From a virus: a stretch of DNA of 64,000 nucleotides. Position 1 is the stretch's first letter, and the number at the start of each line of letters is the position of its first letter. A program made the translations under genes and the position numbers. The stretch is from the IMG/VR virus record IMGVR_UViG_3300008267_000006, positions 32,001-96,000 of that record; one strand, 5' to 3'. Shown here piece by piece: positions 329-33,712 of this stretch. The notes beneath the pieces were generated by a model. It saw nothing but the letters and a program-made list of their open reading frames with translations. It searched no databases and was not told the origin of the DNA.

Positions 329-625
329 TTAGGCATTGTTTACTTTTTGTAGCAGTGAGCCGTTAAATATACCAAGTTGTGCCATCAAACTAATATATTT
401 CTCTTGAAATGCATTCATCTCTTCTGATGTCTTTCCTTCTTTTTGCACCATCTCAAAAGATCTATAAATCATAGATTCCATAACTGATGCAATTAGATAT
501 TTTTCTGAATTGGTGGTCGCTTCTTGAAACATACCTGTTTCTTCCCATTTCTTGATTAGACCATTATTGTCTAGATACTCTTGAACTTTTTCTTCTGTCA
601 TTTGTTCTTGTACTTCATTATCCAT
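329..625 (-). CDS. Hypothetical protein resembling the major capsid protein N-terminal propeptide
   Basis: LIKKWEETGMFQE aligns ungapped with MCP LVSKWEKSGLLEG; overlaps the recA stop. Confidence 0.6.
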   Translation of the reverse strand: MDNEVQEQMTEEKVQEYLDNNGLIKKWEETGMFQEATTNSEKYLIASVMESMIYRSFEMVQKEGKTSEEMNAFQEKYISLMAQLGIFNGSLLQKVNNA

Positions 626-1772
626 TTTGTTCTCCCGGGACCATTTGGTCCTCTAGTAATTCACCTTCTAAATTGTAGTAATTTTTTGCATCGCCTTGTC
701 GTGTATCAAATTTAACAATTACTTCTTCTTCCATTAATTTAAGGACTGCTTTCTTAAATTCTTCTTCTTTCATTAGTTCATTCCAACTTGGACTTTGGAA
801 TTTTCTTGGTTTTCCAGCCACATCAATTTCGTACCAAGCTCCCATTTGTTTTATAAATGGTTTAATTGAAAGAAAAATACTTTCTTCATCCATAATACCA
901 ACTTCTGGTGCTCCCCAAAGAATCTTAAAGAAACATTCACGACCTTGAGTTCCAAATCGTGATTTTTCTAGGCGTGCTTTAACTTCTGAGCCAATTCTAT
1001 ATCCACGTTCATCATTTATATAGCTATCATTTTTTCTAACACCAGTCAACCAAATGCGTAGACTATAAGAATATGCAAGTGCTTTTCCGCCTGGAGTTGT
1101 GTATCTTTCTGAATCTGTTAGATACTTGATATTACCTTGTGGGTTAAGGTTTGTTTTAAGTTGGTTTAGGACCAGTAAGGTTGCTTGCTTATTTGCAATA
1201 GGTTGAATTAGCTTTGATAAACCTTTTGATAAAATTCTTGGCTTTACTGCCATAGAAGAGTTTGGATCAAAATCTCCCTCAAGATCATTTTTACTTGGCG
1301 TTAAGGCAACCGAATCCCAAACAAACAAAAACTTATCATCCGTACTCTTTAATAGATCTTCAATAGTTTCAAGAACAAACTCTACGGAGTCAGCTTGAAG
1401 ATAAAGCAAATTTTGTACATCACATCCAGCTTTTTGTAGGAAGTCTGGATCTATGGCACTTTCACTGTCAAAATAAACAACTGATATGCCCATTTTTTGG
1501 GCATTAGCAGCTATTTGCGCTGCCATATAGCTTTTTCCGCTTGCTGTTTCGCCAGCAAGTTCACAAATTTTACCAACAGGAATACCAGCTAGTTTTCCTC
1601 TACAAATAATAGAATCAAGCCAGCGAGAACCAGTAGGAATCCATTCAGTTACTTCTGTTGGATTTGTTTCTTCAAGATCAAAAGCAACTTCTCTTCCTGC
1701 TTTTTTATTAATCAATGCTCTCATGTCGGAGATAGATATTTTTCCAACAGGTGCTACATTTTTTTTAGCCAT
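618..1772 (-). CDS. recA: RecA/UvsX-like recombinase
   Basis: IPTGS, Walker A GETASGKS, YFDSE, FVWDSVA, NQLK, TPGGKAL, GAWY motifs. Confidence 0.95.
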   Translation of the reverse strand: MAKKNVAPVGKISISDMRALINKKAGREVAFDLEETNPTEVTEWIPTGSRWLDSIICRGKLAGIPVGKICELAGETASGKSYMAAQIAANAQKMGISVVYFDSESAIDPDFLQKAGCDVQNLLYLQADSVEFVLETIEDLLKSTDDKFLFVWDSVALTPSKNDLEGDFDPNSSMAVKPRILSKGLSKLIQPIANKQATLLVLNQLKTNLNPQGNIKYLTDSERYTTPGGKALAYSYSLRIWLTGVRKNDSYINDERGYRIGSEVKARLEKSRFGTQGRECFFKILWGAPEVGIMDEESIFLSIKPFIKQMGAWYEIDVAGKPRKFQSPSWNELMKEEEFKKAVLKLMEEEVIVKFDTRQGDAKNYYNLEGELLEDQMVPGEQNG

Positions 1773-1784
1773 TATTACTCCTAT

Positions 1785-1824
1785 AAAAAACTGGAAACAA
1801 GCAATGTTCAGCTTGTTTCCAGTT
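1785..1824 (-). terminator. Intrinsic terminator between ssb and recA
   Basis: 14-bp stem aactggaaacaagc/gcttgtttccagtt ending in U6, immediately upstream of the recA SD. Confidence 0.8.
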
Positions 1825-1850
1825 ATACTATACTGGTGTCTAGTTGTTAA
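1822..1850 (-). promoter_or_regulatory. Sigma70-type promoter for recA overlapping the terminator stem
   Basis: TTAACA (1850-1845)-N17-TATAAC (1827-1822). Confidence 0.55.
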
Positions 1851-2629
1851 GAGTCAAGTCCAAGTTCTGCAAACGCATCATCTACTGGATTTGATTTCTT
1901 TGAAGATTTCTCTGCTGGTTTTGCACCAAACTTAACAGTCTCTTCTGAGACTGTCTCTACTTCTTCATCCGTATGATCACCAGCTAGGTATTCGTCTAGA
2001 ATAGACATAACTTCTTGACTGGTCTTGCGTGTATGAACCGTGTTTAGATCTGGTACAGAATCCATGATTTCTTTGCATTGCTGTTCGGAATCACATAGTT
2101 TTGTACTTTTAACGCGTGGGGTGATCTTTGGAACAGCATAAGTTTGACCTTTAGCTTTATTTGCCACAATAGTTAGATCACGACCACCAGAGGCATCAGT
2201 AATATCTTCGTAATCTGGGTTTAGCACATAACCAATTAGATCTTGGTATGCGTTCTTTCCATACCCCCAAACTTTTGCTCCTTCGCCTTCTTCTCCACGA
2301 ACAACAATTGCAGAAAAGAAGCGTTGGCGTGGATTAAACTTTTTAGCCATTTTGGCGCTTTCTTCAGTTTTTTCCTTGTAAAGCTTGCTAGCAAAATCAC
2401 AAGCCGCGCATTGCTCACCAAAGTTCTTCTTTGGGCAAAGGAATCCGCCTTGCTTACTTAGTTCATAGTGAAACCAAAATTCCTTAAATGGATCACCATC
2501 TGGTGATGGTAGAACACGGATATTATGGGTAATTCCCTCTTTAGGACTCCAGAATACAGTAGCCTTCTTAGAAGTTTTCTCAGTTAGAGCTTTTAGTTTT
2601 GCTTGCATTTTTGATACGTCGATAGCCAT
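1847..2629 (-). CDS. Single-stranded DNA-binding protein, T4 gp32-like
   Basis: FW-P, IRVLP, PF...HY, CPKKNFGEQCAAC zinc site, KVWGYG, DITD...GRDLT, acidic tail ending DDAFAEL. Confidence 0.9.
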   Translation of the reverse strand: MAIDVSKMQAKLKALTEKTSKKATVFWSPKEGITHNIRVLPSPDGDPFKEFWFHYELSKQGGFLCPKKNFGEQCAACDFASKLYKEKTEESAKMAKKFNPRQRFFSAIVVRGEEGEGAKVWGYGKNAYQDLIGYVLNPDYEDITDASGGRDLTIVANKAKGQTYAVPKITPRVKSTKLCDSEQQCKEIMDSVPDLNTVHTRKTSQEVMSILDEYLAGDHTDEEVETVSEETVKFGAKPAEKSSKKSNPVDDAFAELGLDS

Positions 2630-2643
2630 TTTATTTTCTCCTT

Positions 2644-2703
2644 GTTGAACGAGAGCCGCTCGTCAACTGTTGTTAGACTTCTACCACGGTGTGTAGCAGA
2701 AGT
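2644..2703 (-). promoter_or_regulatory. Two-hairpin 5' leader of the SSB mRNA
   Basis: 11-bp stem with two G-U pairs (2677-2703) and a bulged 9-bp stem (2644-2667) abutting the AAGGAG SD. Confidence 0.55.
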
Positions 2704-2714
2704 AAAGTGCAAAA

Positions 2715-3539
2715 TTATTCCTGAACTACTTTTGTGTGTGCGACAACATAACAATAATTGTGTTCAGATGTTGTGCCAAATATTTTATACGATACTTTTG
2801 TATTAGAGTTAAGTTTTTCTTTCATTTTTTCTTTTATAGTTTTAAAAATCTTGCCATCTGTTTTTAAGATATTTTCATTTATTACAAAATAATAACACTT
2901 ATCGTCTATATGATTAAAGTCGTAGAACATCTTTTCTGAGTCTTCGTTTATTTCATAAATACCATAAGTAATAATTCTACTAACATCTTTTGGAGGAGTT
3001 GAGTTATCTATTATTGGTTTTTTATTTTTTAAAAAGTCTATGCTTGTATACGTAGAATAAATTAATTTATTTAATGTTTCATAATAACTTAATATTGGAA
3101 TATCGCCAACAATATTTTCTAAATTTTCATTAGAAATAATACAAACATCCTTAAAGACACCTGACCGAGCATATTGCTGAAAAACATTAAATGTGAGCCT
3201 ATCTTGCATTTCTGCAATATTGCTTAATAAGTCTTTTTCTGGTCTTATGTATAATATGGAAATTTGTGTATCTCTATAGTGTTGTAGAATTTTTAAACTT
3301 GCTCCACTTATTTTACCAGATCCACCAATGATAAAAAGAGTTTCTTTTTCGTCACTATATAAGAAGCTTGATAAGTCAGGTAGCTTATTTTCATAATCTT
3401 CTGGGTTAGAATAAACTGGTAGTGAATAGCAATTTTCTCCCTCAATATTGCTATCAATTAGTTTTACTTTACAGTTTTCAACGCCTTCAAACATTTCCGC
3501 TATATTACAACCAGCAGATCCTAACCCAATTATATTCAT
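2715..3539 (-). CDS. Divergent tubulin/FtsZ-family (PhuZ/TubZ-like) protein
   Basis: IIGLGSAGCNIA (T1 loop), LIDS, IIGGSGKISGAS (degenerate GGGTGSG), YIRP, IISNE, LNKLI. Confidence 0.75.
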   Translation of the reverse strand: MNIIGLGSAGCNIAEMFEGVENCKVKLIDSNIEGENCYSLPVYSNPEDYENKLPDLSSFLYSDEKETLFIIGGSGKISGASLKILQHYRDTQISILYIRPEKDLLSNIAEMQDRLTFNVFQQYARSGVFKDVCIISNENLENIVGDIPILSYYETLNKLIYSTYTSIDFLKNKKPIIDNSTPPKDVSRIITYGIYEINEDSEKMFYDFNHIDDKCYYFVINENILKTDGKIFKTIKEKMKEKLNSNTKVSYKIFGTTSEHNYCYVVAHTKVVQE

Positions 3540-3540
3540 A

Positions 3541-4749
3541 TCATACCTTTAGTTTCAATTTTTTCATATTACCAAAATCTTTTCCAGCTTTTACATTAAC
3601 TAAAAATTTACCATATTGTGTATCTTGAAGAATATTAATTATATCTATAATATCTTTTTTTTCACTATCTTTTACATCAAGCACAAACTCATCATGTAAC
3701 AAAAATGATACAAAAGAATTTTTATTTTTTAAATATTCTTTCACTTTTAACACTTGTCTATGAAAAAGATCAATAAAAGTACTTTGATTTAAATGAGAAA
3801 TTGCATTATGTGAATCGCTTTCTATCTTTCTATGGAAAGGAGTATATACGTACTGTCCATCCCAATATTTGTTTAATAGTTTTTCTTTCTCAAATAATTT
3901 ATTTAATTCATTTTTATATAGCAGAGCTTTTGGATTATTTGAATTATACAGCCAAGAAGTAACTATTGCCTTTGTTTCGCTTCTCGACAACGAAGAAGAA
4001 AAAACATCACGCCTTATTTTTTCATGCAAATCTTCATCCGCTTGCAAATTTCCATTTAAAGCAAGAGATGTTCTCAACTCTGCTGCATTCATATCGAACG
4101 ATACAAACCAATCATTTGTTGGTTTTAGCATGTCTCTAAAAACTCTAGGAAACGTCTGTATTGGAAAACTATTTTTTTCTGTTGTAAGTCTGCCAGTAAC
4201 TGATCCGAACATATTATAATCAATACTCTTTTTAAGTTTTAAAAGTTTTCTATAGTATTCTAAAGCTCTTGGTTCACCAAATTTAAGCTTTAAACGTTCC
4301 ATATCTAGATTTAATTCTTGTTCGCTTATATCTCCCAGCAACTCAATAAAGTTTTTATAAAAGTCATATTCTTTTGGTTTTTCAAAATTTTGGAAAACAT
4401 GTTCCGAGATTTTGTTTTTTAAATCATAATATCTACAAAGAAAAGTTTGTGGTGTTAAATCAAAAAAACAATTTTCTTCAAGAGAAACTTTTGATTCAAT
4501 GAAAGACGAAACAAAAGCTTTCATTTTTTTATTAATATGACTCCAATCACTCTTTAAATAATCAGGACAAACTTCTTCTAATGATTTTCCATTACAGTAA
4601 ATCTCTGCATATTCAATATTTTTATCTTTTAAGTGGGCTGAATAAGACCATGTTTTTGTTAAATTAACTGGTATATTCGCAAAATAGAGCTTTCCATCTG
4701 CAAAGATACCAGCGCAATCTTTTTTGGAATCTAATGTCTGGAATAGCAT
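3541..4749 (-). CDS. Compact family-A DNA polymerase (polymerase domain only)
   Basis: TGRLTT, motif A FDMNAAELR, motif B RSETKAIVTSWLY, QST..D, motif C LHDEFVLD; no recognisable exonuclease motifs. Confidence 0.85.
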   Translation of the reverse strand: MLFQTLDSKKDCAGIFADGKLYFANIPVNLTKTWSYSAHLKDKNIEYAEIYCNGKSLEEVCPDYLKSDWSHINKKMKAFVSSFIESKVSLEENCFFDLTPQTFLCRYYDLKNKISEHVFQNFEKPKEYDFYKNFIELLGDISEQELNLDMERLKLKFGEPRALEYYRKLLKLKKSIDYNMFGSVTGRLTTEKNSFPIQTFPRVFRDMLKPTNDWFVSFDMNAAELRTSLALNGNLQADEDLHEKIRRDVFSSSLSRSETKAIVTSWLYNSNNPKALLYKNELNKLFEKEKLLNKYWDGQYVYTPFHRKIESDSHNAISHLNQSTFIDLFHRQVLKVKEYLKNKNSFVSFLLHDEFVLDVKDSEKKDIIDIINILQDTQYGKFLVNVKAGKDFGNMKKLKLKV

Positions 4750-6096
4750 TTAGCCTCTAAAAATTAGTGAATTGGTTGGCTTGATAAGATTTTCTTGTTG
4801 CTCTAGTGGTAGCTCATCAAACACCGCAGTCTGTTGTACAGCGGCCATATTTGTTTGTAAAGCATCAATTTGTTTGTTAATTAAAAAGTGATTAAATAAT
4901 TCATTTAAATATTTTAATAACAGATCTTTTCTATTCATTGCAAAATAAGATAAAACTCTTTTAATTAAAACATCATAATTTACTTGCGATAAGTTATAGC
5001 CAGTTTCAAAATTTTTTAAATAGATATATAAAGAATACCAAAATGGCTCTTTAAATTTGGATAAAAAAACTTCTAACGTGGGACTTTCTCTTGTTTTATA
5101 TTTTTGTTGTCGTGCGTCAGATATGCACATATTATGTACATGATCTTGGTATAGTGTATTATTTTCTAAAAATGTTTTGTAGCTAATAAAGAAAAATTTT
5201 TTTAACTCTTCAATATCTTCTACATAAACTTTTTTATATTTTTTATTAAATAAATCCTTAACGTCTTTAATATCATTTTTTTGAAAAACTGGCTTCATCG
5301 CTGGAGAACCAAGATCTGCAAAAATGAACTGTGGGTTGGTTTTATCTATTGCAAATCCAAATTTCATACAAGCGTCACAGAAAGTCAAGAATGAATTATC
5401 TAGAAATATTTTCTCAAAATTCTTCTCGTCGTCACCTGTTTTTTCTGTGGATATCGAAAATGTTAATCCATTAAGAAAATATTTAGAATTTAAAAATAAA
5501 GCCATTGAAGATTTTGTTACTGGTGAGAAATCTATATTTCTAACAAGATAATAAATATAATTTTCAATAAATGTTTTTTCATCAATTATTTTAGAATCAA
5601 GTTCTTTATTATTTAAAGCAAGTTTTTTAAATTTTTGTGCTGTATTTTCTGCAAAATATCCATAAAATGTATCAAGACCGACAAATCCAGACGTTATATC
5701 AACATTATAGAAGAAAGAATTTTTATTAATCTTATTTTTAAACTCTAGATCTTTTAAATAAGACTTCATATTTTTAAAAGAATCAGCAACAAATTTTTGA
5801 ATTTTTATATTATATCCTTTTCTATCTTTTTTTATTGTAGTAAAATTATCAGAATTCTCTATTGGACAAACAATATCTCCATCAATATCTATGATTCCAT
5901 ATAAATAATTTTTTCCCTTTAAATCTCCAAAAGGAATTTTGTATGTTTGAAAATCTGGGAAAGGTATATTTAAAAATTCGTTTCTTATAACATAATCTAT
6001 TGTTTGCTGTTGATAAAATTTTCTAGCCTCAAAGATAGATAATGAAGACTCGTTGCTATTTTTACTATAATAAGGATAAAAAAGTTTACTGCTCAT
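4750..6096 (-). CDS. Hypothetical protein, 448 aa
   Basis: Long ORF abutting both neighbours (TAAATG junction with the polymerase); motif-like FGFAIDKTNPQFIFADLGSPAM. Confidence 0.8.
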   Translation of the reverse strand: MSSKLFYPYYSKNSNESSLSIFEARKFYQQQTIDYVIRNEFLNIPFPDFQTYKIPFGDLKGKNYLYGIIDIDGDIVCPIENSDNFTTIKKDRKGYNIKIQKFVADSFKNMKSYLKDLEFKNKINKNSFFYNVDITSGFVGLDTFYGYFAENTAQKFKKLALNNKELDSKIIDEKTFIENYIYYLVRNIDFSPVTKSSMALFLNSKYFLNGLTFSISTEKTGDDEKNFEKIFLDNSFLTFCDACMKFGFAIDKTNPQFIFADLGSPAMKPVFQKNDIKDVKDLFNKKYKKVYVEDIEELKKFFFISYKTFLENNTLYQDHVHNMCISDARQQKYKTRESPTLEVFLSKFKEPFWYSLYIYLKNFETGYNLSQVNYDVLIKRVLSYFAMNRKDLLLKYLNELFNHFLINKQIDALQTNMAAVQQTAVFDELPLEQQENLIKPTNSLIFRG

Positions 6097-6098: not shown

Positions 6099-8609
6099 TT
6101 ATTTACCTTTACTTCCGTCGTTTCGAATTAATTCTTTATTTTCATCTACGTACGCATATAATACAGCGGAAAGAGATGTATCATATGTATTTTCATTAAA
6201 TTTAGTATATACATCTATAATTTGATAATATCCACCAAGTCCTAATTTTAACTGTAGATTAACAGCAGTATCTCCAGTAAAAAATAATGGCTCTATATAT
6301 ATGTAATCGCCTGGTCTATATATATTATTTCCAAACATAGATATATCTGCGTCGTATACTTCTCTTAATCTTAAGAGGCTTTGGTTTCCATTAGAACCTT
6401 GAGCTTTCGCTTCTTTATAAAAAGGAGTATCTGTTTTTTTAAATGTAATTTTTTTTATTAATCCCCTATCTGATCCTATACAAAAATGATAAATACCATC
6501 TTCTTTATCTTTTTCTATATTTCCTCCGTTATCAGATATTAAATTAGGTAATTGATTAGAGCAATAAAATATACAATAGTTTCCAAAAGGCTCTGTATCT
6601 GAAATAGATTTTGCTGATGCCAGTTTATCCGTTAATTTTTCTATTGTGCCACCAAAATTTTCTGTAATATTTTTTTCAGTAAATGCATCTTTTTCTGTTT
6701 GAAATGGAACAGAAACTGTCGTAGAAGACATTCTTATTTTTTTATTTAAAACAGATTTTGCTCCAAATACAGATGGAGATAAAGCTGGTCCGACAACATC
6801 TGATAGAATATCATACATAAAAGCTAATAATGGATATGTATCTTTTCTTGGTTTTACTATTTTTTCAATAAAAAAATTATGCAACATATCAACTGTGATC
6901 GGTATGTCAGCTAAGTTCATAGAAACTCTTTCAAACTGAACATTATCTTGATTTTTTGGATCAATACTGTTTGGAATTTCAATATCAAAAGGAGTTAAAA
7001 TTAATCTTGGTCTATCTATTGGATTTAAAACTTCTTTTTTTATTACACTAGAAAAAATATCAAAAATATCTCCAAGAAACACAAATTTTATTAAATAACC
7101 ACCTGCTGCTGATACAGCTTCAGTTCTTACATTTTCAGCTGCCGCTTCAGCCGCTGCATTTTTTGCTTTATCTGCTTGGTTACCTCCACCAACTCCTATA
7201 GCATTTTTAAGTGAGTCATAAGTACTGCGTTCCTTATCTGTTTGTGTCGCAGTATCAAGTGCTGATTTTGAAGGTGTATCAACTTTATATTTTTCAAGTT
7301 TTTTGGCTTTTAAAATTGCATCTAACCTTTTTTTGTGATCTGACGAGTCATCCGTACTGATTTCACCATCACCGTTTAATCCTATTGCTTCACCAGTGAC
7401 TATAGCACTATAAATTTTTCTTCCATTATTATCTAAGCCAATAAGTTGTCTCCACACCTCAGAATATAGTCTATTTCTTGCATTCTCTATAATTACCTGA
7501 TTTGGATCTTCATTATATTTTTTATCAAGTTCATCTTTAAGTTTTTGTTTTTCTTCATTATTTTTACTTGAGTCATCTTCAATTTCTTTTTTTTTATTTT
7601 TCAACTCTTCTTGTTTATCTTCTTGAGTTTTTTTTAATTTTTCTAGATCATTTTTGATTGCATCGCTTGCTATAGACAAAATATCTAAAGAAGCTAGTAT
7701 GGAAGCAGTTGATGCAATATATTTTATATTTATAGTTACTGCTCCGCTTTCTTCAAATGTTATATCATGATTATGTGGAGTCAAATAAAAAATTACTTTT
7801 GAAGTTGATATAGCTTCAATTATATCGTCAGCTTCTTCATCAGAAAAATTTCCTACATTTTTAATAAATTCTTTTTCAATTTTAGAATAACCTGCAATAA
7901 TTTTTATTCTAAAATATTCTTTATTCCAATTTCCATCTTTATCTTTTCTGGTTGAATCAGCAACTAAATCCGCATAAGAAAAATTAAATTTAGAACCAGC
8001 GTTCCCTTCAAAATTAGTATCATTTTCTGCAACGTTTATTTCTTTGACTAAATCTCTAACATCTTGAAAATATAATGATAGATCAGCCGAAATATTTGTA
8101 TTAACTTCTGCTGGGTTTGTGCCTTCATATTTATATGAAAAAGATTTTATTCCAACAGCGTGCATCCTTCCAGTACCAGCTATCAGTTCATCTAAAGAAC
8201 TGTTTACAAATTGAGAAGTTTTTGTATAATTTGATTCAAATTTAAAATTAGAATCATCAAAAGGTATTCTCCATTGGATTCCCTTTGATTCTTTGGTTGG
8301 AAATATAACTTTGTATATTTTAATTGATGGTTGAAGAATGCTTAAAATACTACTTGGAAGCTTATTTGAAAGATATTCAATATTATCATTTCTAAATAAA
8401 GCTTTAGTTAACGCTATATGACCACCAGATGCACTATCTTTTATATTAGTTGTTGTTCTAAAAATAGCAAAATTTTGATATGTTTTTACATTTCTAGCCT
8501 CTTTTTCTGGTTCTGGTTGTTTTGTAAGTAATTCTTGGATATTTAACATTAGCGCGGCTTGCTCGCCTAATCTAAGTTTACTTGCTTTTATATCTTTATC
8601 TTCAGCCAT
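6099..8609 (-). CDS. Putative baseplate hub-like protein (gp27/late control D-like)
   Basis: Position after tape measure/LysM genes; C-terminal MFGNNIYRPGDYIYI...LGGYYQIIDV typical of hub proteins. Confidence 0.6.
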   Translation of the reverse strand: MAEDKDIKASKLRLGEQAALMLNIQELLTKQPEPEKEARNVKTYQNFAIFRTTTNIKDSASGGHIALTKALFRNDNIEYLSNKLPSSILSILQPSIKIYKVIFPTKESKGIQWRIPFDDSNFKFESNYTKTSQFVNSSLDELIAGTGRMHAVGIKSFSYKYEGTNPAEVNTNISADLSLYFQDVRDLVKEINVAENDTNFEGNAGSKFNFSYADLVADSTRKDKDGNWNKEYFRIKIIAGYSKIEKEFIKNVGNFSDEEADDIIEAISTSKVIFYLTPHNHDITFEESGAVTINIKYIASTASILASLDILSIASDAIKNDLEKLKKTQEDKQEELKNKKKEIEDDSSKNNEEKQKLKDELDKKYNEDPNQVIIENARNRLYSEVWRQLIGLDNNGRKIYSAIVTGEAIGLNGDGEISTDDSSDHKKRLDAILKAKKLEKYKVDTPSKSALDTATQTDKERSTYDSLKNAIGVGGGNQADKAKNAAAEAAAENVRTEAVSAAGGYLIKFVFLGDIFDIFSSVIKKEVLNPIDRPRLILTPFDIEIPNSIDPKNQDNVQFERVSMNLADIPITVDMLHNFFIEKIVKPRKDTYPLLAFMYDILSDVVGPALSPSVFGAKSVLNKKIRMSSTTVSVPFQTEKDAFTEKNITENFGGTIEKLTDKLASAKSISDTEPFGNYCIFYCSNQLPNLISDNGGNIEKDKEDGIYHFCIGSDRGLIKKITFKKTDTPFYKEAKAQGSNGNQSLLRLREVYDADISMFGNNIYRPGDYIYIEPLFFTGDTAVNLQLKLGLGGYYQIIDVYTKFNENTYDTSLSAVLYAYVDENKELIRNDGSKGK

Positions 8610-9655: not shown

Positions 9656-12600
9656 TTACATCGCTCCCATCGTCATCTTTGCATCAACAAGTGTATCGCC
9701 TGTCTTTAATGCTCTAGCTAACTCATTTCCAGTTATAATTAGTTTAACTTTCTGTTCTGCCTTTGCTGCTTGTGAGCTTGTCATTGCTTGCCTTAATGCT
9801 GCAACAAGAGCATCTTTTTCTATATCTTTTGATCTTGATTGCGCTTCATAATAATCTTTAACAGCGACAACAAATTTCTTTGTTGGTTGTATATCCTCTT
9901 CAGTAAGTGACTTAACAGTTGTTAATGTTTCATTTAATGCTGTAAGTGTAACTGCTTTGTTTTCTGGTATTGAATTTATTGCTGCACCTAGAGCCGTTAT
10001 CGCAAGAACCATCATCGATATACCAGCAGCAATAGCAATAAATCCTAAACCTCCACCTAAAAGCCCAACAACACCCATTGTCATAAAAGAGAACATAAGA
10101 TCTGAAATACCCGTGGCTAATTCAGAAAAAATAGCTCCAGATCCTTTTAATTTACCTATGTTTTCTGCTATTAATTTAATACCCTCTCCTAGCATTTTTG
10201 CACCCATGCCGACAATACTAGTAGAAATAGCTATGGAAAGAAGAGGCCCAGAAACTAATCCAAAAAGAAATACATTTCTAGCTAATGTTATTAAATTTTT
10301 AGTAAAATTTGAAATACCACTTGACACTTCTTCACTGGCTAAAGAAGAGAATCCATCAGACATCGCAGTAATCTTTTCACCTAGACCAGTAAGTGAAATA
10401 TTTATTAAACCAAACGCAACGCCTAATCCAATAAGAGTTGGTATAGCAAAAGAAAATATAGTTAATGGATATACTAAAATTAGTAATGCTGCTGCTAATT
10501 TTAAAGCACCAGTTATTGTGTCTGAATTAGATAGTTTATTCAAACCATCTGCAACTAAACCTAGGGAATCTCCTATTATTTTTATAGAGGTTGATGCAAT
10601 AGCAGTTGCTATTCCTAGCATTATAAACGCTCCAGCAACAAGCAATAAACCAGGCCCGGCAAGAGCTAATAAGTATAACATAGGAGCTGCAATAAGTAAT
10701 GCAGAGGATAACATTAACAGACCTATTGATAATTTATAAATACCGTCTGAAGTCTCTTCAGATGCAAGAAGAGGCAGACCTTCAGATAGCAACTTAACCC
10801 CAGCTCCTGCAAGAGTCAACCCAGTGCCGAGTAATAAAAACGCTAAACCAACACCAATTAGAGGTATAGAAAATAAGCTAAGAGCAAACAATACAGGGGT
10901 TAATAAATATAAACCAGCAGCTAAAGAAGCAATACCAAGGAAAATTTTTGGATCAGTTAACGAAGTCATTGACTTAACAATCAATGAAAGGCCAAGACCA
11001 GCTAATGCAACTCCAGCACCTAAAAATAAAAATGCAATACCAAGAAATATTAATCCTGGTGAAAGAGGAGCAGTTGACGTAACTAGAAACCAAACAGCAG
11101 CCGCAAAGCCACCAAGAAGTAATATAACGACTGCAAGTGCAGCTGCCATTTGTGGCCCAGTTAAGTCCTTAAAAGAACCAACAAGTAATGCTAGACCGCC
11201 AGCAGCTACTCCAACACCAATTCCTATCATTAAAACAGCCTTTCCAAGTGCTTCAAGTCCTTCTTCGGCCTGTTCTGCTGCTTCTCCTATTGCTATTATA
11301 ATAAATGGTAACATTATTAACGCAAGATAGAGAATTGGTGAGTGTGGAACCATTAATACATCGTGCAACATCTGAAATGCACTAACTAACATCATTATGA
11401 TCGATATCCAGCCAAATATTCCAACACCAGCAAAAGCTGCTTTTAGTGAATTCATAACTCCTGTTGTCGTCATTGCTTTTAATGATAATGCAGATAAATC
11501 AATTCCGACCATCTTTAATGCACCAGAGAACAAAAAACTAGCCTTTGAACCAAAAGCTATAGCGCCAGCTAATAGCCAGATTGTTCCACCTAATCCACCA
11601 AACCAATCATTTATATTAGCAATAACAGTTGTAAAAAAAACAAAAAGTTCAACAAGTGGTTTTATAATAATCATTAATTGATTAAACATTTGCGATAATC
11701 GTTCAGTTACCTTTGCTGCTTCACGCTGAACTTTCTCCAACTCCTCTTGTTTTGCAGCTTGCTTTTCCATGTCAGCGGTCAAATCACCAGTTGAGTTACC
11801 AAATAATCTGCTTGCTTCATCTAAATCTTTAATACCAAGAGTTGCTGCGATTGCTTTTTTCTCGTATTTACCAAGAGAATCGAAATTTTTTCCAGACTCA
11901 TCAAAAGATTTTTTTAATAAAACAATTCTTTCGGACTCAGTTGCATTTAACATTTCTACTGAGTTGAGGTAGTTTCCTCCTAACACCGCATTCAACTTTC
12001 CAGCAGCCCTAGCAGAACCCTCAAATGTATCAAATTGATCACCAATTATAGCAGTTAATTGTTGCACTTGTAATCCAAGACTTTTTGCTTGCTTTTCTAA
12101 AGCAACAAATACATCTATACCTTGTTTACCATATGCAGATAATTTACCCATATTTTGAGCAAATTCTCCAACCATTTTTGAAGGTGCAATACCAGCGCCT
12201 ATAGCAGCTCTCGCAATTTCTTCATTTGTTCGTTTTGCCTCAGTCGCTGACATTCTTAAATTTTTAGTTAATAGGTCATAATTTTTTGCAGACGTAGCAG
12301 CAGATATACCTAAGTTTTCAAGTTTAGCAGTAGATTCTGCTAGGTCTTTTTGAATATCTTTATTTAGAGCAGAATATGCTGACATGTCTGTAAATAATGT
12401 AGCATTTGCTTTACTTAATTTCTCAAATCCTATACCATAATTTGAAAGACCAGCACCAAACATAAGTGAATTATTGGCAATTTGTCCAGTTGCCGCAGCG
12501 AATTCAGAGTTTGCATCAGCAATTTTTGCAAAAGATTGCGCTGCAAATACAACTGCTTCTGAAAATGCTACTTTCCATATACCGGCCATACCAGCACCAG

Positions 12601-14201: not shown

Positions 14202-14768
14202 CTATATTGGAAATCCTGGTGATACATCTTTTGTTCTACTTGTCGATTCTTTTACCAACTCCGCCCAGTCATATTGAATAGTAAGCGATACATCAACAAA
14301 GCCTTCATTTTCATAACTTAAAGTTCCATAATTAACATTTGTAATCATTGGATTATTTACTTTCCAAGTTTCTAATGTTTGACCATTTTCATCTATTTGT
14401 TTTAAATCAAAGCTTTTTCCACAATCTTTTTGTATTTGTTGTAGTTTTCCATCTTTTGGTGGTTGATAGCCAAGTTGTAGAATATATTGATGAATTAAAT
14501 TTGGTAAATAATTACCCTTATCATCAGCAGCAGAAACAAATTTTATATCAATAGGTTTCCACTTTAAATTACCTGGAAATTTTATTGGCTGACCTAATAA
14601 CTTATATTCATTAACATCTATATCATAGCTTGGTTTTGAACATTCTTTAAGCGCATAAACAAAAGAATCGGCGTTTTGGACAGATGAACTTAAATAAGTT
14701 CCAAAATCAATAAACCATCTATTTTGTCTTAATGGTTCTTTTAATATTTTTTCTGTCCAAAACGCCAT
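14202..14768 (-). CDS. Tail tube protein 2 (gp19-like)
   Basis: EPLRQNRW, KPSY, PGNLKW, ETWKV, YGTLSY, LTIQYDWA. Confidence 0.85.
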   Translation of the reverse strand: MAFWTEKILKEPLRQNRWFIDFGTYLSSSVQNADSFVYALKECSKPSYDIDVNEYKLLGQPIKFPGNLKWKPIDIKFVSAADDKGNYLPNLIHQYILQLGYQPPKDGKLQQIQKDCGKSFDLKQIDENGQTLETWKVNNPMITNVNYGTLSYENEGFVDVSLTIQYDWAELVKESTSRTKDVSPGFPI

Positions 14769-14780: not shown

Positions 14781-15347
14781 TTATTTTTCAGGGAAACCTG
14801 GACTATCACCAGGTACTAGATCAATGGATTCATCAAAATCGTTCAATTTAGCCCAATCATATTTTAATGTACAAGTAATTTCAACTATTTCTTCACTACC
14901 ATAATCAAGAGCACCAAATTGAACTGATGTAAATAATGGTTTATAAATTTGCCATTTTTCTCTGGTATTGCCGTCTGGATCTATTTGAATAAGATCAATT
15001 GTACCTATTGCACTATTCATCTTATTTTTTCCAATGGTTGATTTATCAGTTTCAGTATTTTTGCCAGATGGAACTCCATAACCAGATTTGGTTAAAATAT
15101 CAAAAAGTATTTTTGAGCCATTTGGTTCTGCTACTGCTGCGAATGTAACGTTTATATCTTCCCACTCAAGACGACCTGGATAATTAAAATAATGATTTAT
15201 ATATTTATGTTGAATTGTAGATATTTTTGCTTTTGGCTTATCAGCTTTTTTTAATGCATATGATATTTTTCCTAAATCTGTAGAAAAATTCATATACCAT
15301 CTAAACTGCCTTAAAGGCTCTTCTGTTTGTACGCTCCAAAATGACAT
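14781..15347 (-). CDS. Tail tube protein 1 (gp19-like)
   Basis: EPLRQFRW, YPGRLEWEDI, EKWQI, FGALDY, LKYDWA; follows the sheath gene. Confidence 0.9.
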   Translation of the reverse strand: MSFWSVQTEEPLRQFRWYMNFSTDLGKISYALKKADKPKAKISTIQHKYINHYFNYPGRLEWEDINVTFAAVAEPNGSKILFDILTKSGYGVPSGKNTETDKSTIGKNKMNSAIGTIDLIQIDPDGNTREKWQIYKPLFTSVQFGALDYGSEEIVEITCTLKYDWAKLNDFDESIDLVPGDSPGFPEK

Positions 15348-18237: not shown

Positions 18238-18759
18238 TTACTTTGAATTAAATACACTTTCTCTTGCTTTAATACATTTGGCTAAAATTTCAAATTTATG
18301 ATCTATTTGCCCAAATAATCTTTTTGATTCATTTAAGGATACTATTTCATAAAACGTATCACCATACAAAACATAATCACCCTCTCTTACATATAATTCT
18401 TGATCTTCGATTAATCTACGTCTATGAAATTTAACAACTATAGAGGTTAAACGATCTATTCCATATGCTTCTGCTGTTGTTTTGCTTCCTTCCCATTCAA
18501 TAAGAGCATTTATTTTTATTGGGGAAAGAAATGTTTTTTTAACTGCCTCTCCATATATTGGATGATAATTTGTATGTTCTCTGCTAATTGGATAATATAT
18601 AACAGTTTGTCCAATCACTCTTTCTATTAATTCATCATTTACTTGCTTAACAAGATTTCTCTCCTTTTCTCCAAGAAAAAGAGGAGGTGGAGGTGATTCT
18701 TGTGGAATCTCTGCTATATTTTCTGTTTTCTTTTTTCTTGCCATAATATTATCCAACAA
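18238..18759 (-). CDS. Head closure / neck protein (gp14-like); likely start MARKK
   Basis: ELIERVIGQTVIYY, IYGEA, REGDYVLYGDTFYEI; position between neck and sheath genes. Confidence 0.75.
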   Translation of the reverse strand: MLDNIMARKKKTENIAEIPQESPPPPLFLGEKERNLVKQVNDELIERVIGQTVIYYPISREHTNYHPIYGEAVKKTFLSPIKINALIEWEGSKTTAEAYGIDRLTSIVVKFHRRRLIEDQELYVREGDYVLYGDTFYEIVSLNESKRLFGQIDHKFEILAKCIKARESVFNSK

Positions 18760-20020
18760 ATATCAAGTTAGGAATAAAGCTTTGAGCTTTTGATGCTTCT
18801 TCCATCATTTTAGCACTTGTCTCGCTTACCTTAGAATAAGTCATCTCTTCTAGCTGAGTCTTTAATTCTTCTCTTAGATCTTTTTGTTCTTCCTTACCTT
18901 CAGAAATAAGTTTATCACCGTTAAGTGTAACTTGTTCTCCTGGAATAGGTATATTTGCAAATTTACTTCTTACTTGCCCAAGCATTTCTTTGCAAATTGC
19001 TAATGCAAATCTACGAATCCATTGTTTACCTATTGAATTAATTTTATCATATGGTAAATTTTGGAATGGCATAGTATTCATATTATTTATTCCATTTATA
19101 GTTGATTTAACTGTTGGATCTGAATTTTTCCAAGCATCAGATGGAATAGAGTATTCAAAAAAGAATTTAGTTGGAGTAGCTGCATTTGGAACAGGAAATA
19201 TTCTTAAAATATTATTTCTTAATTGAAACGACCAATCAGAAACTCTTGTTTTAATAGCATCTTCGTATGCCATTGCTTGTAGTTTATTTTGCCATGTCGG
19301 AACAATTTCAAATGTACTATCATCAGCATATTGTCCATATGTACTTAAATTTCCAACAACATTTAGACCACCAAAATAACCATAAAAATTCCAGCTTGCA
19401 CCAATTGTTTTATAAAATACTTTTTTAATTAATACTTTTTTATTATCAAGAGCAATATTATTAGCAGCGGCTGAAGAACTGACAGCTTTTTGTAAATCAT
19501 AATCTTGTTGTCCAACAACAGTATCTATAGATGCTGAATATGTTGGCTCGTTACCATTTAAAGATACCTCGTCATTAACTGAATTTGCTATGCCTTTTAT
19601 ATATGTAAAACTCATTTTAGGAAATGCAAGATTTGCATTTATATTATCTAATGATCCAGTTATTTGTCCGTCACTGTTAAAAGAACTTGTTGATTGACCA
19701 AGAACAAATGGTAGTGCATTTTTTGATTGATGTAGGTTTATTAAATAGGAATATTCAAGACATGCTTCTTCGTATGCTGCGTGTACTTGATTTTCAACTA
19801 ATTCAATATCTAGTACATCTCCACCAAGTTTTTTATATACATACGAAACTTGCTCTACTGAGCCTGTTTTATATTCATTGATTTGTTCATTTGTCCAATA
19901 ACTTTCATTAACATATACACCAAAAGGTAAATTAAAATTATTTACATTTATTATGTTCCCTGTTATTGGTAAAATAACTTTGCTCATTTGTGATAATGGT
20001 GAAAGTACTGGTAGGGACAT
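18749..20020 (-). CDS. Neck / head-tail adaptor protein (gp13-like)
   Basis: KKLGGDVLDIEL, WIRRFALAICKEMLGQVRSKF, PGEQVTLNG. Confidence 0.85.
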   Translation of the reverse strand: MSLPVLSPLSQMSKVILPITGNIINVNNFNLPFGVYVNESYWTNEQINEYKTGSVEQVSYVYKKLGGDVLDIELVENQVHAAYEEACLEYSYLINLHQSKNALPFVLGQSTSSFNSDGQITGSLDNINANLAFPKMSFTYIKGIANSVNDEVSLNGNEPTYSASIDTVVGQQDYDLQKAVSSSAAANNIALDNKKVLIKKVFYKTIGASWNFYGYFGGLNVVGNLSTYGQYADDSTFEIVPTWQNKLQAMAYEDAIKTRVSDWSFQLRNNILRIFPVPNAATPTKFFFEYSIPSDAWKNSDPTVKSTINGINNMNTMPFQNLPYDKINSIGKQWIRRFALAICKEMLGQVRSKFANIPIPGEQVTLNGDKLISEGKEEQKDLREELKTQLEEMTYSKVSETSAKMMEEASKAQSFIPNLIFVG

Positions 20021-20119
20021 TATTTTTCCTCAAATAAAATATCATAAATAAATAGTTTTTATAATCTTTTAAAGCAATAAAACATTCCTTAACTTTATAA
20101 AGCTTCTATTTATAGTACC

Positions 20120-20677
20120 ATGAAAATAAAAATAAATGAAAAAAAGAAATCAGCAGGTAGAGAAAAATTCTGCAAAAGTAAAGCAACAAGAGAATATGGT
20201 AAAAAAACAAGCCTATATCGCTCAATGGCGCTTTCAAAATGTAGAAAAGGCAAGATCTGGAAAGAAGCCATAGAAGCTGGTGTTCAAAGTTCAATTCTAG
20301 AAGAACAATTATTATTTGAACTAGAATCTATTAAAGATTTAGGCGACGACACAGCAACTCTTGATGATGGCACACATGTTTGCGAGGCGTGTCTATATGA
20401 GACTTTAACTACTCTTGATGAGAATGTATTAGAGGAAGCTGAATATCATGGTCGCAAGGTTACACTAAATAAACCAATGCGTGGCGATGTTAAAAAGTTC
20501 AAAGTGTTCGTCAAGGATCCCAAAACAGGTAATGTTAAAAAAGTTAATTTTGGTGATCCTAATATGCGTATAAAGAAAAGCAATCCAAAACGTCGTAAAT
20601 CATTTCGTGCTCGTCATCATTGTGAAAACCCTGGTCCTAAAACAAAAAGTAGGTACTGGAGCTGTCGCAAGTGGTAG
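20120..20677 (+). CDS. Basic two-module head-associated protein; the only credible plus-strand gene
   Basis: C-terminal EAEYHGRKVTLNKP...VKKVNFGD...RRKSFRARH.C...YWSCRKW module familiar from T4-like phages; motif CTATTTATA 5 nt before the ATG. Confidence 0.8.
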   Translation: MKIKINEKKKSAGREKFCKSKATREYGKKTSLYRSMALSKCRKGKIWKEAIEAGVQSSILEEQLLFELESIKDLGDDTATLDDGTHVCEACLYETLTTLDENVLEEAEYHGRKVTLNKPMRGDVKKFKVFVKDPKTGNVKKVNFGDPNMRIKKSNPKRRKSFRARHHCENPGPKTKSRYWSCRKW

Positions 20678-20713
20678 TAGTATTATAATTTAAACACACT
20701 ACATATAGTAGAT

Positions 20714-20758
20714 AAAAGAAACCCGCCTGACTCGATAAAGAGGGGCGGGTTTATTATT
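20714..20758. terminator. Bidirectional terminator between convergent genes
   Basis: aaacccgcc (20719-20727)/ggcgggttt (20744-20752) stem with an A-tract before and a T-rich tract after. Confidence 0.7.
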
Positions 20759-20808
20759 TGTAAAGGGTGTTATGACACATTTTCTTCTTGGCAGTTCTTA
20801 TTTAGAAC

Positions 20809-20839
20809 AAAAAAGAACCCCCGGCATTTCTGCCGGGGG
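20809..20839 (-). terminator. Major capsid gene terminator
   Basis: 9-bp GC stem cccccggca/tgccggggg with a GAAA loop on the mRNA, then U-rich tract. Confidence 0.85.
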
Positions 20840-20872
20840 CCTTTATTAGCAAACCGCTTGTTTTAAGCTAGT

Positions 20873-22648
20873 TTAGCCTAGTAGATCTTGAATTACTACA
20901 AGACCATACATATCTGGGCGAACCATCGTCTTACCATAACGAGTCATTACAGCCTTACGTGGAACGAAGGTGTTAGGATCGAAAATGGTTGGGGTGCTTT
21001 GTAGTGGTACGTATGGGGCATATACGTAACCGCTTTCTAGGAAGCTACCACCTTTACGACCTACTAGGATTACGTTACGTAGGAAGTATGGGTGAACAAT
21101 GATATCCCATTTCTTGTTTAGATCACCAACACGAACAGCACCTACTGAACCTTTTTCATCGGTTGCAGTTACTGATGCGCGGAAACCGCTGGTGAATTCA
21201 AGAATGTTAGCAACTTCTGGACCACATACAAGGAAGTTAGCTCCACCGCGTAGAGTTTTACGATGGATTAGAGCTGAACAATCATTGATGGTTTCAACTA
21301 GGGTTTCATACCACATTTGAACGTTACCAGTGAAATCTGGAGGAGCAGCATAACCACCTGATAGGGTTGAACCTAGATCAGCGCCAGTATCGCGGTTAAC
21401 AAATTTACCTGGACGACGTGACCAGTATTTGACACCGGCAGTTGCGCCCTTGACTAGATCGTTCATGATTTCTTGATCAATTTCTAGACCAATTTGTTCT
21501 GATAACATTGAAGTTAGTTCTACTTCAGCATCTAGATTGTGATAAGCATTTAGATCTTGACCTAGTTCTGGAGTCCATGAAGCTTTTAGCTTACGTGAAC
21601 GAGCAGTGATTGAGTATGAATCGACTTTTAGTTCGATTTCTGGAATTGCTGAAGAACCTTCCATTGTCCATGGGGTTGCACCAACAACAGCACCTAATGC
21701 GCTATCACCAACAGCAACAACATTGTCCTTGACTGGGTATGATAGTAATACGTGTGAAGCGGTTACAACTGCGGCTAGAGCAGCATCACCCTTAGCAGCA
21801 ACTACAACTTCTAGTGATTTCGCACCAGTTGAAGGATCAACAAATACTCTTGATAGACGACGAACTAGTTTAGCACTATTTGCTAGTGAAGAACCAGCAG
21901 CATCTTGTTCACCAGCGGCTACCGCACCAGCATTTTGTGCAAATGATACTGAGAATACGTCATTTTCAGCTAGTAGTTGGCTGTTTGCAATATTAGCAAA
22001 TGGTACGCGTAGTACTGAAGCTGAAACGTAGTTTGAATCAGTTAGTAGATCTGCATCCCAACGTACTGCTTTTTTATCAGCATCAGAAGCGGTTGCTAGA
22101 CCAAACTTGGCTACTTCAACAACGTTTGAAGCAGTGGTTGAAGAGTGATAGCGAGCGGTGTGATAACCGTTTGCCATGTTGTAGAAACCTTTTTCAGCAT
22201 TATCTACACCTTCGATACGAACACCGCCGGTGATTTGTACACCTAGACGATCACCGAAGAATGATTCACCTTTGTTGAATACCTTGTCACCAGTGTTACC
22301 GATATCGCTTCCACGGCGGAAATCCATGAAGAATACTAGACCTGATGGTAGGCTCATTGGTTGTACTGATACTAGATCGTTAGCGATTAGACCAGCGAAT
22401 ACACGACGAACGATTGGGAACGCTACTGAGGCAAAGCCTTGTACGTCACCATTTGACATAGTGTTGGTTTCTTTTAGTAGTTCTTTTGCTTGATTCTCTA
22501 GTAGAATGGACATGGTGCTTTTTTGACGAGCATCCTTTAGACCTTCTAGTAGACCGCTCTTTTCCCATTTAGAAACTAGAGCAGCAGTTTCTTTGAGAGT
22601 ATTACGTTCAACGATACCCTCGGTTAATTTTTCTAATACGTTACCCAT
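20873..22648 (-). CDS. Major capsid protein (T4 gp23-like)
   Basis: KW...LLENQ, PIVRR, VQPMSLPSGLVF, SRKLKASWTPELGQDL.AYH.LDAE.EL, YAPYVPLQ, MTRYG; AGGAG SD. Confidence 0.98.
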   Translation of the reverse strand: MGNVLEKLTEGIVERNTLKETAALVSKWEKSGLLEGLKDARQKSTMSILLENQAKELLKETNTMSNGDVQGFASVAFPIVRRVFAGLIANDLVSVQPMSLPSGLVFFMDFRRGSDIGNTGDKVFNKGESFFGDRLGVQITGGVRIEGVDNAEKGFYNMANGYHTARYHSSTTASNVVEVAKFGLATASDADKKAVRWDADLLTDSNYVSASVLRVPFANIANSQLLAENDVFSVSFAQNAGAVAAGEQDAAGSSLANSAKLVRRLSRVFVDPSTGAKSLEVVVAAKGDAALAAVVTASHVLLSYPVKDNVVAVGDSALGAVVGATPWTMEGSSAIPEIELKVDSYSITARSRKLKASWTPELGQDLNAYHNLDAEVELTSMLSEQIGLEIDQEIMNDLVKGATAGVKYWSRRPGKFVNRDTGADLGSTLSGGYAAPPDFTGNVQMWYETLVETINDCSALIHRKTLRGGANFLVCGPEVANILEFTSGFRASVTATDEKGSVGAVRVGDLNKKWDIIVHPYFLRNVILVGRKGGSFLESGYVYAPYVPLQSTPTIFDPNTFVPRKAVMTRYGKTMVRPDMYGLVVIQDLLG

Positions 22649-22671
22649 TTTATTCTCCTGTAGAATATTTG

Positions 22672-23913: not shown

Positions 23914-23952
23914 TAATTAGTCTCCTATCAACGACTAAAAACAGTTTTTTTA

Positions 23953-23962
23953 TATAAATAGT
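23953..23962 (-). promoter_or_regulatory. Putative late promoter ACTATTTATA upstream of scaffold/MCP
   Basis: Recurrent motif. Confidence 0.6.
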
Positions 23963-23993
23963 GCTTTAATACATCAATTGACTATTATAATAG

Positions 23994-24296
23994 CTATTGA
24001 CGATTATTTATATTTTTATTTATTGTTTTTTTCTTCTTTTTTGATTTTTCTTCTACTTCTGACATTAAATCTTTGTTATGTTTTTGAGCGTTTCTCTTAT
24101 ATCTCTCTCTTTTTTCACGCTCTTTGACACTTTTCTTCACAAATCTTCTATTCCAAGCACAATTATCATATAAATATTGAACTAAAGACTCTTTGCTACA
24201 AGCTTTAATAAATTTCTTAATTAACTGATCTGTGCTTTCTTCAGTTGGTCTTACATGATCTGGAAGTTTTACTTCTAAATGTACTGCTCTACCCAT
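23994..24296 (-). CDS. rpsU: Phage-encoded ribosomal protein bS21 homologue
   Basis: V.......ESTDQLIKKFIKACSKESLV......RRFVKKSVKEREKR matches the bS21 pattern E..D.ALRRFKR.C.K.G......R..YEKPS..R.RK. Confidence 0.75.
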   Translation of the reverse strand: MGRAVHLEVKLPDHVRPTEESTDQLIKKFIKACSKESLVQYLYDNCAWNRRFVKKSVKEREKRERYKRNAQKHNKDLMSEVEEKSKKKKKTINKNINNRQ

Positions 24297-24302
24297 ATTG
24301 TC

Positions 24303-24752: not shown

Positions 24753-24798
24753 CTTAACCTCGTTTTGTTTTAAATAGTTTTATATTATACAATATCCT

Positions 24799-25631: not shown

Positions 25632-25639
25632 TCATTGTC

Positions 25640-31959: not shown

Positions 31960-31977
31960 TCTTTATTTTTCCTTGTA

Positions 31978-32376: not shown

Positions 32377-32377
32377 T

Positions 32378-33237: not shown

Positions 33238-33262
33238 TTTATTTTCCTAACTTAAAATTAGT

Positions 33263-33298
33263 TATAGCCCTGTAGATTTTTTTCTCTACAGGGCTATA
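33263..33298. terminator. 14-bp hairpin (terminator or RNA-stability element)
   Basis: tatagccctgtaga/tctacagggctata. Confidence 0.6.
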
Positions 33299-33299
33299 G

Positions 33300-33374: not shown

Positions 33375-33410
33375 CGATAATCATCACCTCCATTCAGTAT
33401 AAATAGTGAA

Positions 33411-33704: not shown

Positions 33705-33712
33705 ATTATTTC

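Follow-up and report, generated by a model that had tools for sequence, protein, structure and literature searches.

The stretch analysed here, referred to below as the window, is 64,000 nucleotides (nt) long and covers bases 32001-96000 of the 111,487-base IMG/VR virus record IMGVR_UViG_3300008267_000006. The record was judged to be 59% complete, it is 94% coding, and its genes lie almost all on the minus strand. This work concerns a trio of minus-strand genes encoding proteins of 448, 402 and 274 amino acids (aa), called unk448, polA402 and tub274, i.e., a protein with a peptidase-like fold, a small family A DNA polymerase and a minimal tubulin/FtsZ-fold protein. The three are joined by 0-1 nt (TAAATG between the 448-aa and the 402-aa gene, TGA-T-ATG between the 402-aa and the 274-aa gene), and a gene for an 836-aa protein ends 2 nt upstream (TAA-CA-ATG). 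A first-pass annotation of this DNA had reported the same coordinates, junctions and 2-nt gap, and these proved accurate. That annotation suggested that the trio may be an undescribed, late-expressed, non-replicative DNA-handling module. We find instead that the polymerase is of a published kind, that tub274 belongs to a new family, and that the locus could well be the place where two conserved blocks meet, one of tail genes and one of recombination and replication genes.

Gene order at the locus and in its relatives

The arrangement of the trio is conserved. A scan of viral contigs with a single sequence found nothing; an alignment-based scan of viral contigs yielded 80 loci, at which polA identity ranges between 60% and 39%. 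The order 1141-aa, 233-aa, 112-aa, 836-aa and 448-aa gene, polA, tubulin-like gene, gp32 and uvsX is common to all 80. The tub274 gene is present at 77 of them and the remaining three are contigs ending just past polA, so it was found at 77 of the 77 informative loci. As judged with a family profile, a member of the unk448 family lies directly upstream of polA in 65 of the 66 loci with enough sequence. The trio thus co-occurs in relatives, and the observation of the first-pass annotation stands in this respect.

The spacing is mostly tight. Of 75 loci, 65 have a distance of -13 to +12 nt from polA to tub274, and the others are explained by a small inserted open reading frame (ORF) or by start-codon artefacts; the distance from unk448 to polA is between -4 and +14 nt in 55 of 63 loci. 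The tub274 and gp32 genes never overlap in the relatives, and most of the gaps between them measure either about 85-95 nt or about 320 nt. At five loci (L039, L040, L045, L065 and L067) an ORF of about 100 aa starting K(I/V)YNKLVRDKIP sits between polA and the tubulin-like gene, so the pair can be separated. Since close spacing is the rule across a 94%-coding, one-strand genome, it is weak evidence of partnership.

The polymerase, the tubulin-fold protein and the 448-aa protein

The polA402 protein passes the Pfam DNA_pol_A model (PF00476) with 36.7 bits against a cut-off of 34.3. Motif A (DMNAAELR, residues 219-226) and motif C (HDE, residues 352-354), which had already been recognised in the first-pass annotation, align to the corresponding Klenow motifs. 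In profile alignments that included Klenow, residues R187, D219/E224, R256/K260/Y268, Q322 and H352-D353-E354 correspond to R668, D705/E710, R754/K758/Y766, Q849 and H881-D882-E883 of E. coli Pol I, and motif A also has R226. Thr264 stands at the position of F762, and Asn takes the place of Gly after the motif B Tyr. No match to the 3'-5' exonuclease family PF01612 was found in polA402, in agreement with its earlier description as exonuclease-less. As judged from these motifs, polA402 is a catalytically complete family A polymerase without a recognisable exonuclease. It has 970 homologues; among the 120 listed, nearly all are about 400 aa long and most match PF00476.

Residues 1-111 are strongly conserved, with F3, Q4, D7, K9, C12, W34, P62, C94, D97 and P100 invariant. 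In this N-terminal domain (window 4417-4749, minus strand) Cys12 and Cys94 are invariant and Cys61 is nearly so. Two motifs, FQTLD and ENCFFD, are reminiscent of ExoI and ExoII; the acids of ExoI are lost, and FQTLD is devoid of the acidic pair. A profile of the N-terminus found no PDB match by sequence and nothing significant in the N-terminus of the polymerase of phage immuto_3-5A (introduced below); the domain may be what is left of an exonuclease, or it may bind metal. An alignment that is weak but sensible (E-value 0.024) places the canonical start of the polymerase domain at residue 112. By the same alignment, about 73 residues separate this start from the TGR motif, compared with about 147 in Klenow, which suggests a short thumb. 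In view of this alignment we no longer took the N-terminus for just a full thumb.

A polymerase of this kind has been described. The divPolA1 group comprises second, divergent family A polymerases of about 400-440 aa in phages of 155-190 kilobases (kb), which also encode a regular polymerase (family A, B or C) and GroEL; in divPolA1 the palm is conserved, the thumb is shortened, with the 3'-5' exonuclease inactivated or lost (Yutin et al. 2024, Virol J 21:200, PMC11348598). Downstream of divPolA1 lie genes for a single-strand DNA-binding protein (SSB), a recombinase, a flap nuclease and DnaB, while the surroundings of the regular polymerase are less replication-like and its family changes among A, B and C (PMC11348598). 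By hhalign, polA402 matches gp1 of immuto_3-5A, a named divPolA1 member, with a probability of 95.9% (E-value 6e-9, 278 columns), and E. coli Pol I with a probability of just 62%. The gene order in immuto_3-5A is divPolA1, two small genes, SSB, recombinase, 5'-3' exonuclease and DnaB, the same as here. The features that accompany divPolA1 were found here as well, namely a regular polymerase and GroEL in the record, complete relatives of 168-187 kb, and replication genes downstream. The profile match and the shared gene order make polA402 a member of the described kind; by its sequence it groups with divPolA1 and, contrary to the earlier claim, is thus already described. Some differences remain. 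The similarity between the present clade and the cultured member immuto_3-5A is only distant, and tblastn of polA402 against deposited phages (E-value 1e-5) gave no match, that member included. Motif C is a full HDE here and YDA in immuto. Finally, a tubulin-fold gene follows directly downstream here and is without counterpart in the immuto phage, whose genome contains no tub274 homologue; neither the main text nor one supplementary file of the divPolA1 study mentions tubulin or FtsZ (PMC11348598).

A separate polymerase had been proposed as something to look for, and one is present. About 19 kb from polA402, the same record encodes a 1151-aa Pol III alpha with PHP, alpha core, fingers and HhH regions, and a gene for a GIY-YIG-type homing endonuclease lies directly upstream of it. 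All five long relatives, two of which are at least 90% complete, have a single Pol III alpha and a single mini-PolA each, and PolB is absent from all five. Thus, a polymerase of the polA402 type is never the sole polymerase in this record and the five long relatives. A stand-alone epsilon-like 3'-5' exonuclease of the RNase_T family was found in two of the three long relatives searched, and a beta clamp in none of the three; the present record (111,487 bases, 59% complete) yielded neither. The two epsilon-like exonuclease genes (G001:C1:83521-84009 and G002:C1:162329-162829) are far from both polymerase genes. In the cultured relative MW353176.1 (L088) a full 7-deazaguanine DNA-modification set (QueC, QueD, QueE, FolE, QueF and DpdA) occupies positions 18607-36971, between its two polymerase genes.

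The tub274 protein was modelled with AlphaFold2 from a 37-sequence alignment, and the model reached a predicted local distance difference test (pLDDT) score of 95. Foldseek ranked FtsZ and TubZ first (E-value about 1e-12, template-modelling score 0.70-0.74). In structural alignments with VIA the Z scores ranged from 20.5 to 23.8 over 252-271 residues, with CetZ at 23.8, TubZ at 22.6, and FtsZ and eukaryotic tubulin at about 21. On these model comparisons the tubulin/FtsZ fold is certain, and no subfamily stands out. Sequence searches did not reveal it: PF00091 matched neither tub274 nor anything else in the record at E-values up to 1, the hhalign comparison to E. coli FtsZ was not significant, and tblastn of tub274 against deposited phages gave no match.

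The nucleotide-binding loops were counted over 143 representatives. The T1 glycines are kept in 85, 99 and 82% of them, and the guanine-contact Asn in 78%. The T4 signature GGGTG(S/T)G is replaced in tub274 by GGSGKISG, with a two-residue deletion relative to FtsZ, and in the family solely G73 of this loop is conserved, at 93%; the figures for G75 and G79 are 55% and 58%. At positions 168-186, where the T7 catalytic acid (NxDxxD/E) would be expected, there is no conserved acidic residue. The description of the protein as a degenerate tubulin is thus borne out by the fold and by the decayed T4 and T7 loops. The best-conserved residues are family-specific (Q121, R125, S126 and Q273). With a degenerate phosphate loop and T7 loop, tub274 is unlikely to form a GTP-driven dynamic filament.

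The family has 867 representative clusters at E-values up to 1e-3, and almost all of the best 150 are 265-300 aa long. In the Atlas it consists of viral clusters only, and no fused forms were found, a search for long forms included, which is weak evidence. We regard the family as new: it has no curated family, its fold is known, and in this clade a polymerase is its constant neighbour.

Several known systems are useful for comparison. TubZ/RepX of Bacillus and Clostridium plasmids and prophages are encoded by mobile replicons, and RepX has been linked to DNA replication. They have the tubulin/FtsZ fold in common with tub274, which aligns to TubZ with Z scores of 22.6 and 22.2. TubZ is a protein of about 400 aa with a C-terminal tail and an intact GTPase, and it works with TubR and a centromere; tub274, in contrast, is just 274 aa long and tail-less, its T4 loop is degenerate and a T7 acid is not conserved. 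PhuZ, which like tub274 is a phage-encoded member of the tubulin superfamily, occurs in phages with a chimallin nucleus and forms dynamic GTP-dependent spindles there by means of its acidic C-terminal tail, whereas tub274 has degenerate loops and no tail, and its gene lies between those for a polymerase and gp32. Both fold domains of FtsZ and CetZ align with tub274 over 252-267 residues and the T1 GxGxxG glycines are common to all, but tub274 differs from them in lacking a PF00091 match and the T7 NxDxxD, in a T4 loop two residues shorter and in its identity to FtsZ of 11-16%.

The unk448 model reached a pLDDT of 86. The sole noteworthy Foldseek matches were VanXYc, LdcB and VanY (E-value 0.07, probability up to 0.94). 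Independently of Foldseek, VIA returned ShhN, VanY, LdcB, VanXYg, VanX, MepA and two endolysins of phages, Ply500 and LysB4, over residues of about 55-290, with Z scores of 6.8-4.6. The two aligners thus agree on the LAS family, that of the M15 peptidases VanY and LdcB, though with middling scores; the ESM Atlas offered only a poor model for unk448 and no usable match. The unk448 family keeps the segments S-P-x-x-S-G-L-x-I-(D/E) and F-G-F-x-x-D-x-x-x-P-W-R-L. No conserved His corresponding to the His-Asp-His zinc ligands (SxHxxGxAxD, ExxH) was found in 33 members, and the position of the ligand Asp holds Asp or Glu in many members and Ser in the protein of the window. As the fold is LAS-like and not RNase H-like, we rejected the possibility that PolA is split here and that unk448 supplies its missing exonuclease half.

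In immuto_3-5A a 938-aa 'carboxypeptidase' is encoded two genes before divPolA1. Its C-terminal canonical VanY domain (PF02557, E-value 7e-10) has all the zinc ligands (SSPHGWGGALD and EMWHFEY) and also a segment HGWYNPWRL. The segments G-L-x-I-(D/E) and GF...NPWRL are common to it and unk448, and both stand where the tail block ends, shortly before divPolA1; unk448 differs in being a separate gene, in having an extra C-terminal helical region and in the loss of both zinc histidines. Divergence was expressed in bits per residue, where low values mean fast divergence; the values were 0.15 for unk448, 0.12 for the 836-aa and 1141-aa proteins, and 0.66-0.90 for polA402, tub274 and gp32. Given the LAS-type fold, the tail-like divergence and the immuto VanY at an equivalent place, in our reading the tail block ends with unk448, which is probably a tail-associated, catalytically dead VanY-type domain. 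The same evidence speaks against its proposed role as a partner or adaptor of the polymerase.

Neighbouring genes and transcription signals

The genes around the trio are listed in Table 1. Upstream lie tail genes, namely those for the sheath, two tube proteins, a T4_baseplate-family protein, the 1141-aa and 233-aa proteins, the 112-aa protein with a baseplate-wedge match and the 836-aa protein. The last of these had been labelled a baseplate hub. Its tail context is clear, but the hub label is not backed by any match, as neither the protein nor its family profile matched Pfam, PHROG or PDB sequences. Two adjacent 188-aa paralogues at window 14202-14768 and 14781-15347 (minus strand) both match tail tube families. 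Past the window, downstream, there are genes for a UvdE endonuclease, a stand-alone 5'-3' exonuclease, DnaB, ribonucleotide reductase, thymidylate synthase, ligase, Pol III alpha and GroEL. With gp32, UvsX, the flap nuclease and DnaB downstream, the context is one of replication and recombination, and the earlier label 'non-replicative' is not supported.

Table 1. Features of the locus and of the second polymerase region. Positions are those of the window unless a locus handle precedes them.
Feature	Position	Strand	Basis or remark
Phage-type promoter-like box ACTAATTA	9736..9743	-	89 nt upstream of 233-aa gene; promoter function inferred
836-aa protein	6099..8609	-	tail context; after 1141-aa protein (tape-measure position) and 112-aa baseplate-wedge match
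448-aa protein (unk448)	4750..6096	-	residues ~55-290 of LAS/VanY-type fold without zinc histidines (model); C-terminal helical region
402-aa family A DNA polymerase (polA402), divPolA1 type	3541..4749	-	PF00476 and complete catalytic set
274-aa minimal tubulin/FtsZ-fold protein (tub274), degenerate GTPase loops	2715..3539	-	model and structure searches
gp32 leader, 85 nt	2630..2714	-	two short hairpins, then AAGGAG ribosome-binding site; sequence reading
gp32-type single-strand DNA-binding protein	1847..2629	-	PF08804 E 3.5e-11; phrog_1192 E 5e-24
Strong terminator-like hairpin after gp32 (14 pairs and T run)	1789..1824	-	hairpin scan
UvsX/RecA recombinase	618..1772	-	PF00154 E 2e-36; phrog_97 E 8e-52
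Pol III alpha, 1151 aa	L083:13484-16939	minus	profile matches
GroEL	L083:3408-4976	minus	same record as Pol III alpha

Strong terminator-like hairpins on the gene strand are found only at 13158-13129 and 1824-1789, none of them between the 836-aa gene and gp32. Matches to sigma-70-like promoters are no commoner than in shuffled sequences (60 vs. 63.4). The box ACTAWTTA, in turn, occurs 31 times on the gene strand and twice on the other. It lies within 100 nt upstream of a start in 23 of 30 cases, against 12% of random positions, mostly 20-100 nt upstream, and it precedes the sheath, head and other structural genes. The strand bias is seen in relatives too (137 vs. 24). The box is likely the phage's own promoter, of a late type. 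Around the trio it stands at window positions 18214, 9743-9736 and 297; it is absent between 9743 and 297, so that the copy at 9743-9736 is the nearest one upstream of the trio. The variant TCTAWTTA (sites 5024 and 13117) was not counted as a promoter, as it lacks a strand bias (12 vs. 8). Host-type boxes TTGACA-N17-TAnnnT are confined to position 79 and sites further downstream, in the Pol III, ribonucleotide reductase and helicase region. Such boxes (window 79-38, minus strand; G000:C1 near 18880 and 7900) overlap terminator hairpins or come directly after them, as terminator-promoter units.

As no terminator lies between the box at 9743 and the hairpin after gp32, the trio is probably co-transcribed with the tail-tip genes. 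The run from the 233-aa gene to gp32 is thus probably one unit served by the phage-type box and not by host-type early promoters, which is consistent with the first-pass annotation, where the trio was described as attached to the baseplate operon with no promoter or terminator in between. In a number of relatives (L006, L011, L013, L016, L024, L029, L030, L032 and others) an ACTAWTTA box lies inside the tubulin-like gene, about 135 nt before its stop. It falls on a conserved codon triplet, KLF as ACTATTTA or KLI as ACTAATTA, and is absent from the gene in the window; this internal box may be a gp32 promoter or a by-product of coding. The gp32 leader may, by analogy, be a translational operator of the T4 gene 32 kind.

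Possible roles of the trio

To the account that we favour we give an even chance. In it, two conserved blocks, tail on one side and recombination/replication on the other, meet at this locus, rather than one three-part machine being encoded there. The phage would be an immuto-like freshwater myovirus of roughly 170-190 kb. The unk448 protein would close the tail-tip block; having lost the zinc ligands, it probably binds or scaffolds rather than cuts. The divPolA1-type polA402 would open the recombination/replication block and carry out short-patch synthesis: it would extend the recombination intermediates that UvsX and gp32 produce and, together with the flap nuclease and the ligase, which are separate proteins, fill gaps, with Pol III alpha as the processive replicase. 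The conserved translational coupling to the polymerase suggests that tub274 is an accessory or scaffold, which would be a non-dynamic, stoichiometric component of the replication/recombination block.

Several observations weigh against this account. The VanY link of unk448 is weak, with Z at most 6.8: none of the 33 members matched Pfam VanY (PF02557) at E-values up to 1, and the unk448 profile met the immuto VanY domain with an E-value of 0.055. The 836-aa family profile showed no similarity to the immuto 'carboxypeptidase', so a split-gene scenario is unproven. The divergence of unk448 correlates with that of polA (rho 0.76) as well as with that of the 836-aa protein (rho 0.77). On the side of transcription, two relatives have promoter-like boxes directly upstream of polA, and the promoter assignment is based on motifs only. 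As the immuto divPolA1 is without a tub274 homologue and some relatives carry an inserted ORF, the polA/tub274 pair is not obligatory. Finally, the published survey argues that it is divPolA1, and not the regular polymerase, that has the conserved replication context (PMC11348598), and divPolA1 could therefore be the main replicase.

A more specific proposal on tub274, which we consider unlikely, is that a tubulin-fold protein retired as a GTPase has become a dedicated subunit that clamps or tethers a thumb-less family A polymerase during recombination-dependent synthesis.

The next possibility, to which we assign a rather low probability, goes further and makes divPolA1 the main replicase and tub274 its processivity or tethering subunit in place of the truncated thumb, leaving Pol III alpha another role. 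It draws on the conserved SSB, recombinase, flap nuclease and DnaB block headed by divPolA1 and on the less replication-like, family-swapping regular polymerase (PMC11348598). No junction in the region is better conserved than that of polA and tub274, where ATGA overlaps occur; the stretch before TGR is about 73 residues vs. about 147 in Klenow, in a weak alignment; tub274 is acidic (isoelectric point 5.1) and polA402 basic (8.6); and a beta clamp was not found in complete relatives. Family A polymerases can need a small non-polymerase protein for processivity, as T7 gp5 does with host thioredoxin, which serves as a works-like model with no homology. However, it would be unusual for a 190-kb genome to have a replicase that does not proofread, the PHP-containing Pol III alpha is constant in the clade, and the epsilon-like exonuclease occurs in two of three long relatives searched. 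Moreover, immuto phages have divPolA1 without tub274, and fused forms were not found.

We find similarly doubtful a role of tub274 that does not involve the polymerase, namely that of a cytoskeletal or host-directed tubulin, be it a PhuZ/TubZ-like filament positioning phage DNA or an FtsZ-poisoning cap that stops host division. Phage tubulins and phage FtsZ inhibitors are established classes, both fold domains of tub274 are complete and closest to TubZ, CetZ and FtsZ, and most members keep the T1 glycines and the guanine-contact Asn (78%). The T4 signature and the T7 catalytic residue are nevertheless not conserved, no C-terminal tail extends beyond the 274-aa core, and the position inside the replication block is kept across 77 loci; with an identity to FtsZ of just 11-16%, co-assembly with host FtsZ is unlikely.

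Least probable of all, and in our view improbable, is the original idea of unk448, mini-PolA and the tubulin-like protein as one late, non-replicative machine for end or nick processing, or for a virion-delivered or filament-tethered polymerase, with unk448 as adaptor: the trio is indeed syntenic and tightly joined in nearly all relatives, neither a terminator nor a promoter box separates it from the tail genes, and the divergence of unk448 tracks polA as well as the 836-aa protein, but the unk448 fold is of a cell-wall-peptidase type, its gene evolves five times faster than polA and tub274, immuto has before divPolA1 a different 323-aa gene that the unk448 profile does not match, and close spacing is general in a 94%-coding genome. 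No result speaks for a virion-delivered or a filament-tethered polymerase.

For one-strand, 94%-coding genomes in general, close gene spacing is poor evidence for a functional cassette. The combination of Pol III alpha and divPolA1 with a separate flap nuclease and, in relatives, an epsilon-like exonuclease poses a testable question on the division of labour in phage replication. With the polymerase already published, the novelty lies in a very large, virus-only family of proteins of 275-290 aa that have the tubulin/FtsZ fold with decayed GTPase loops and are encoded inside a replication/recombination block. If tub274 works with the polymerase, the uses of the tubulin fold extend from filaments to accessory factors of DNA synthesis, and the partnership could explain how a polymerase with a truncated thumb functions. 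Should tub274 indeed act as a clamp or tether, this would be a new job for a cytoskeletal fold and a new kind of polymerase accessory, in hundreds of aquatic phage lineages.

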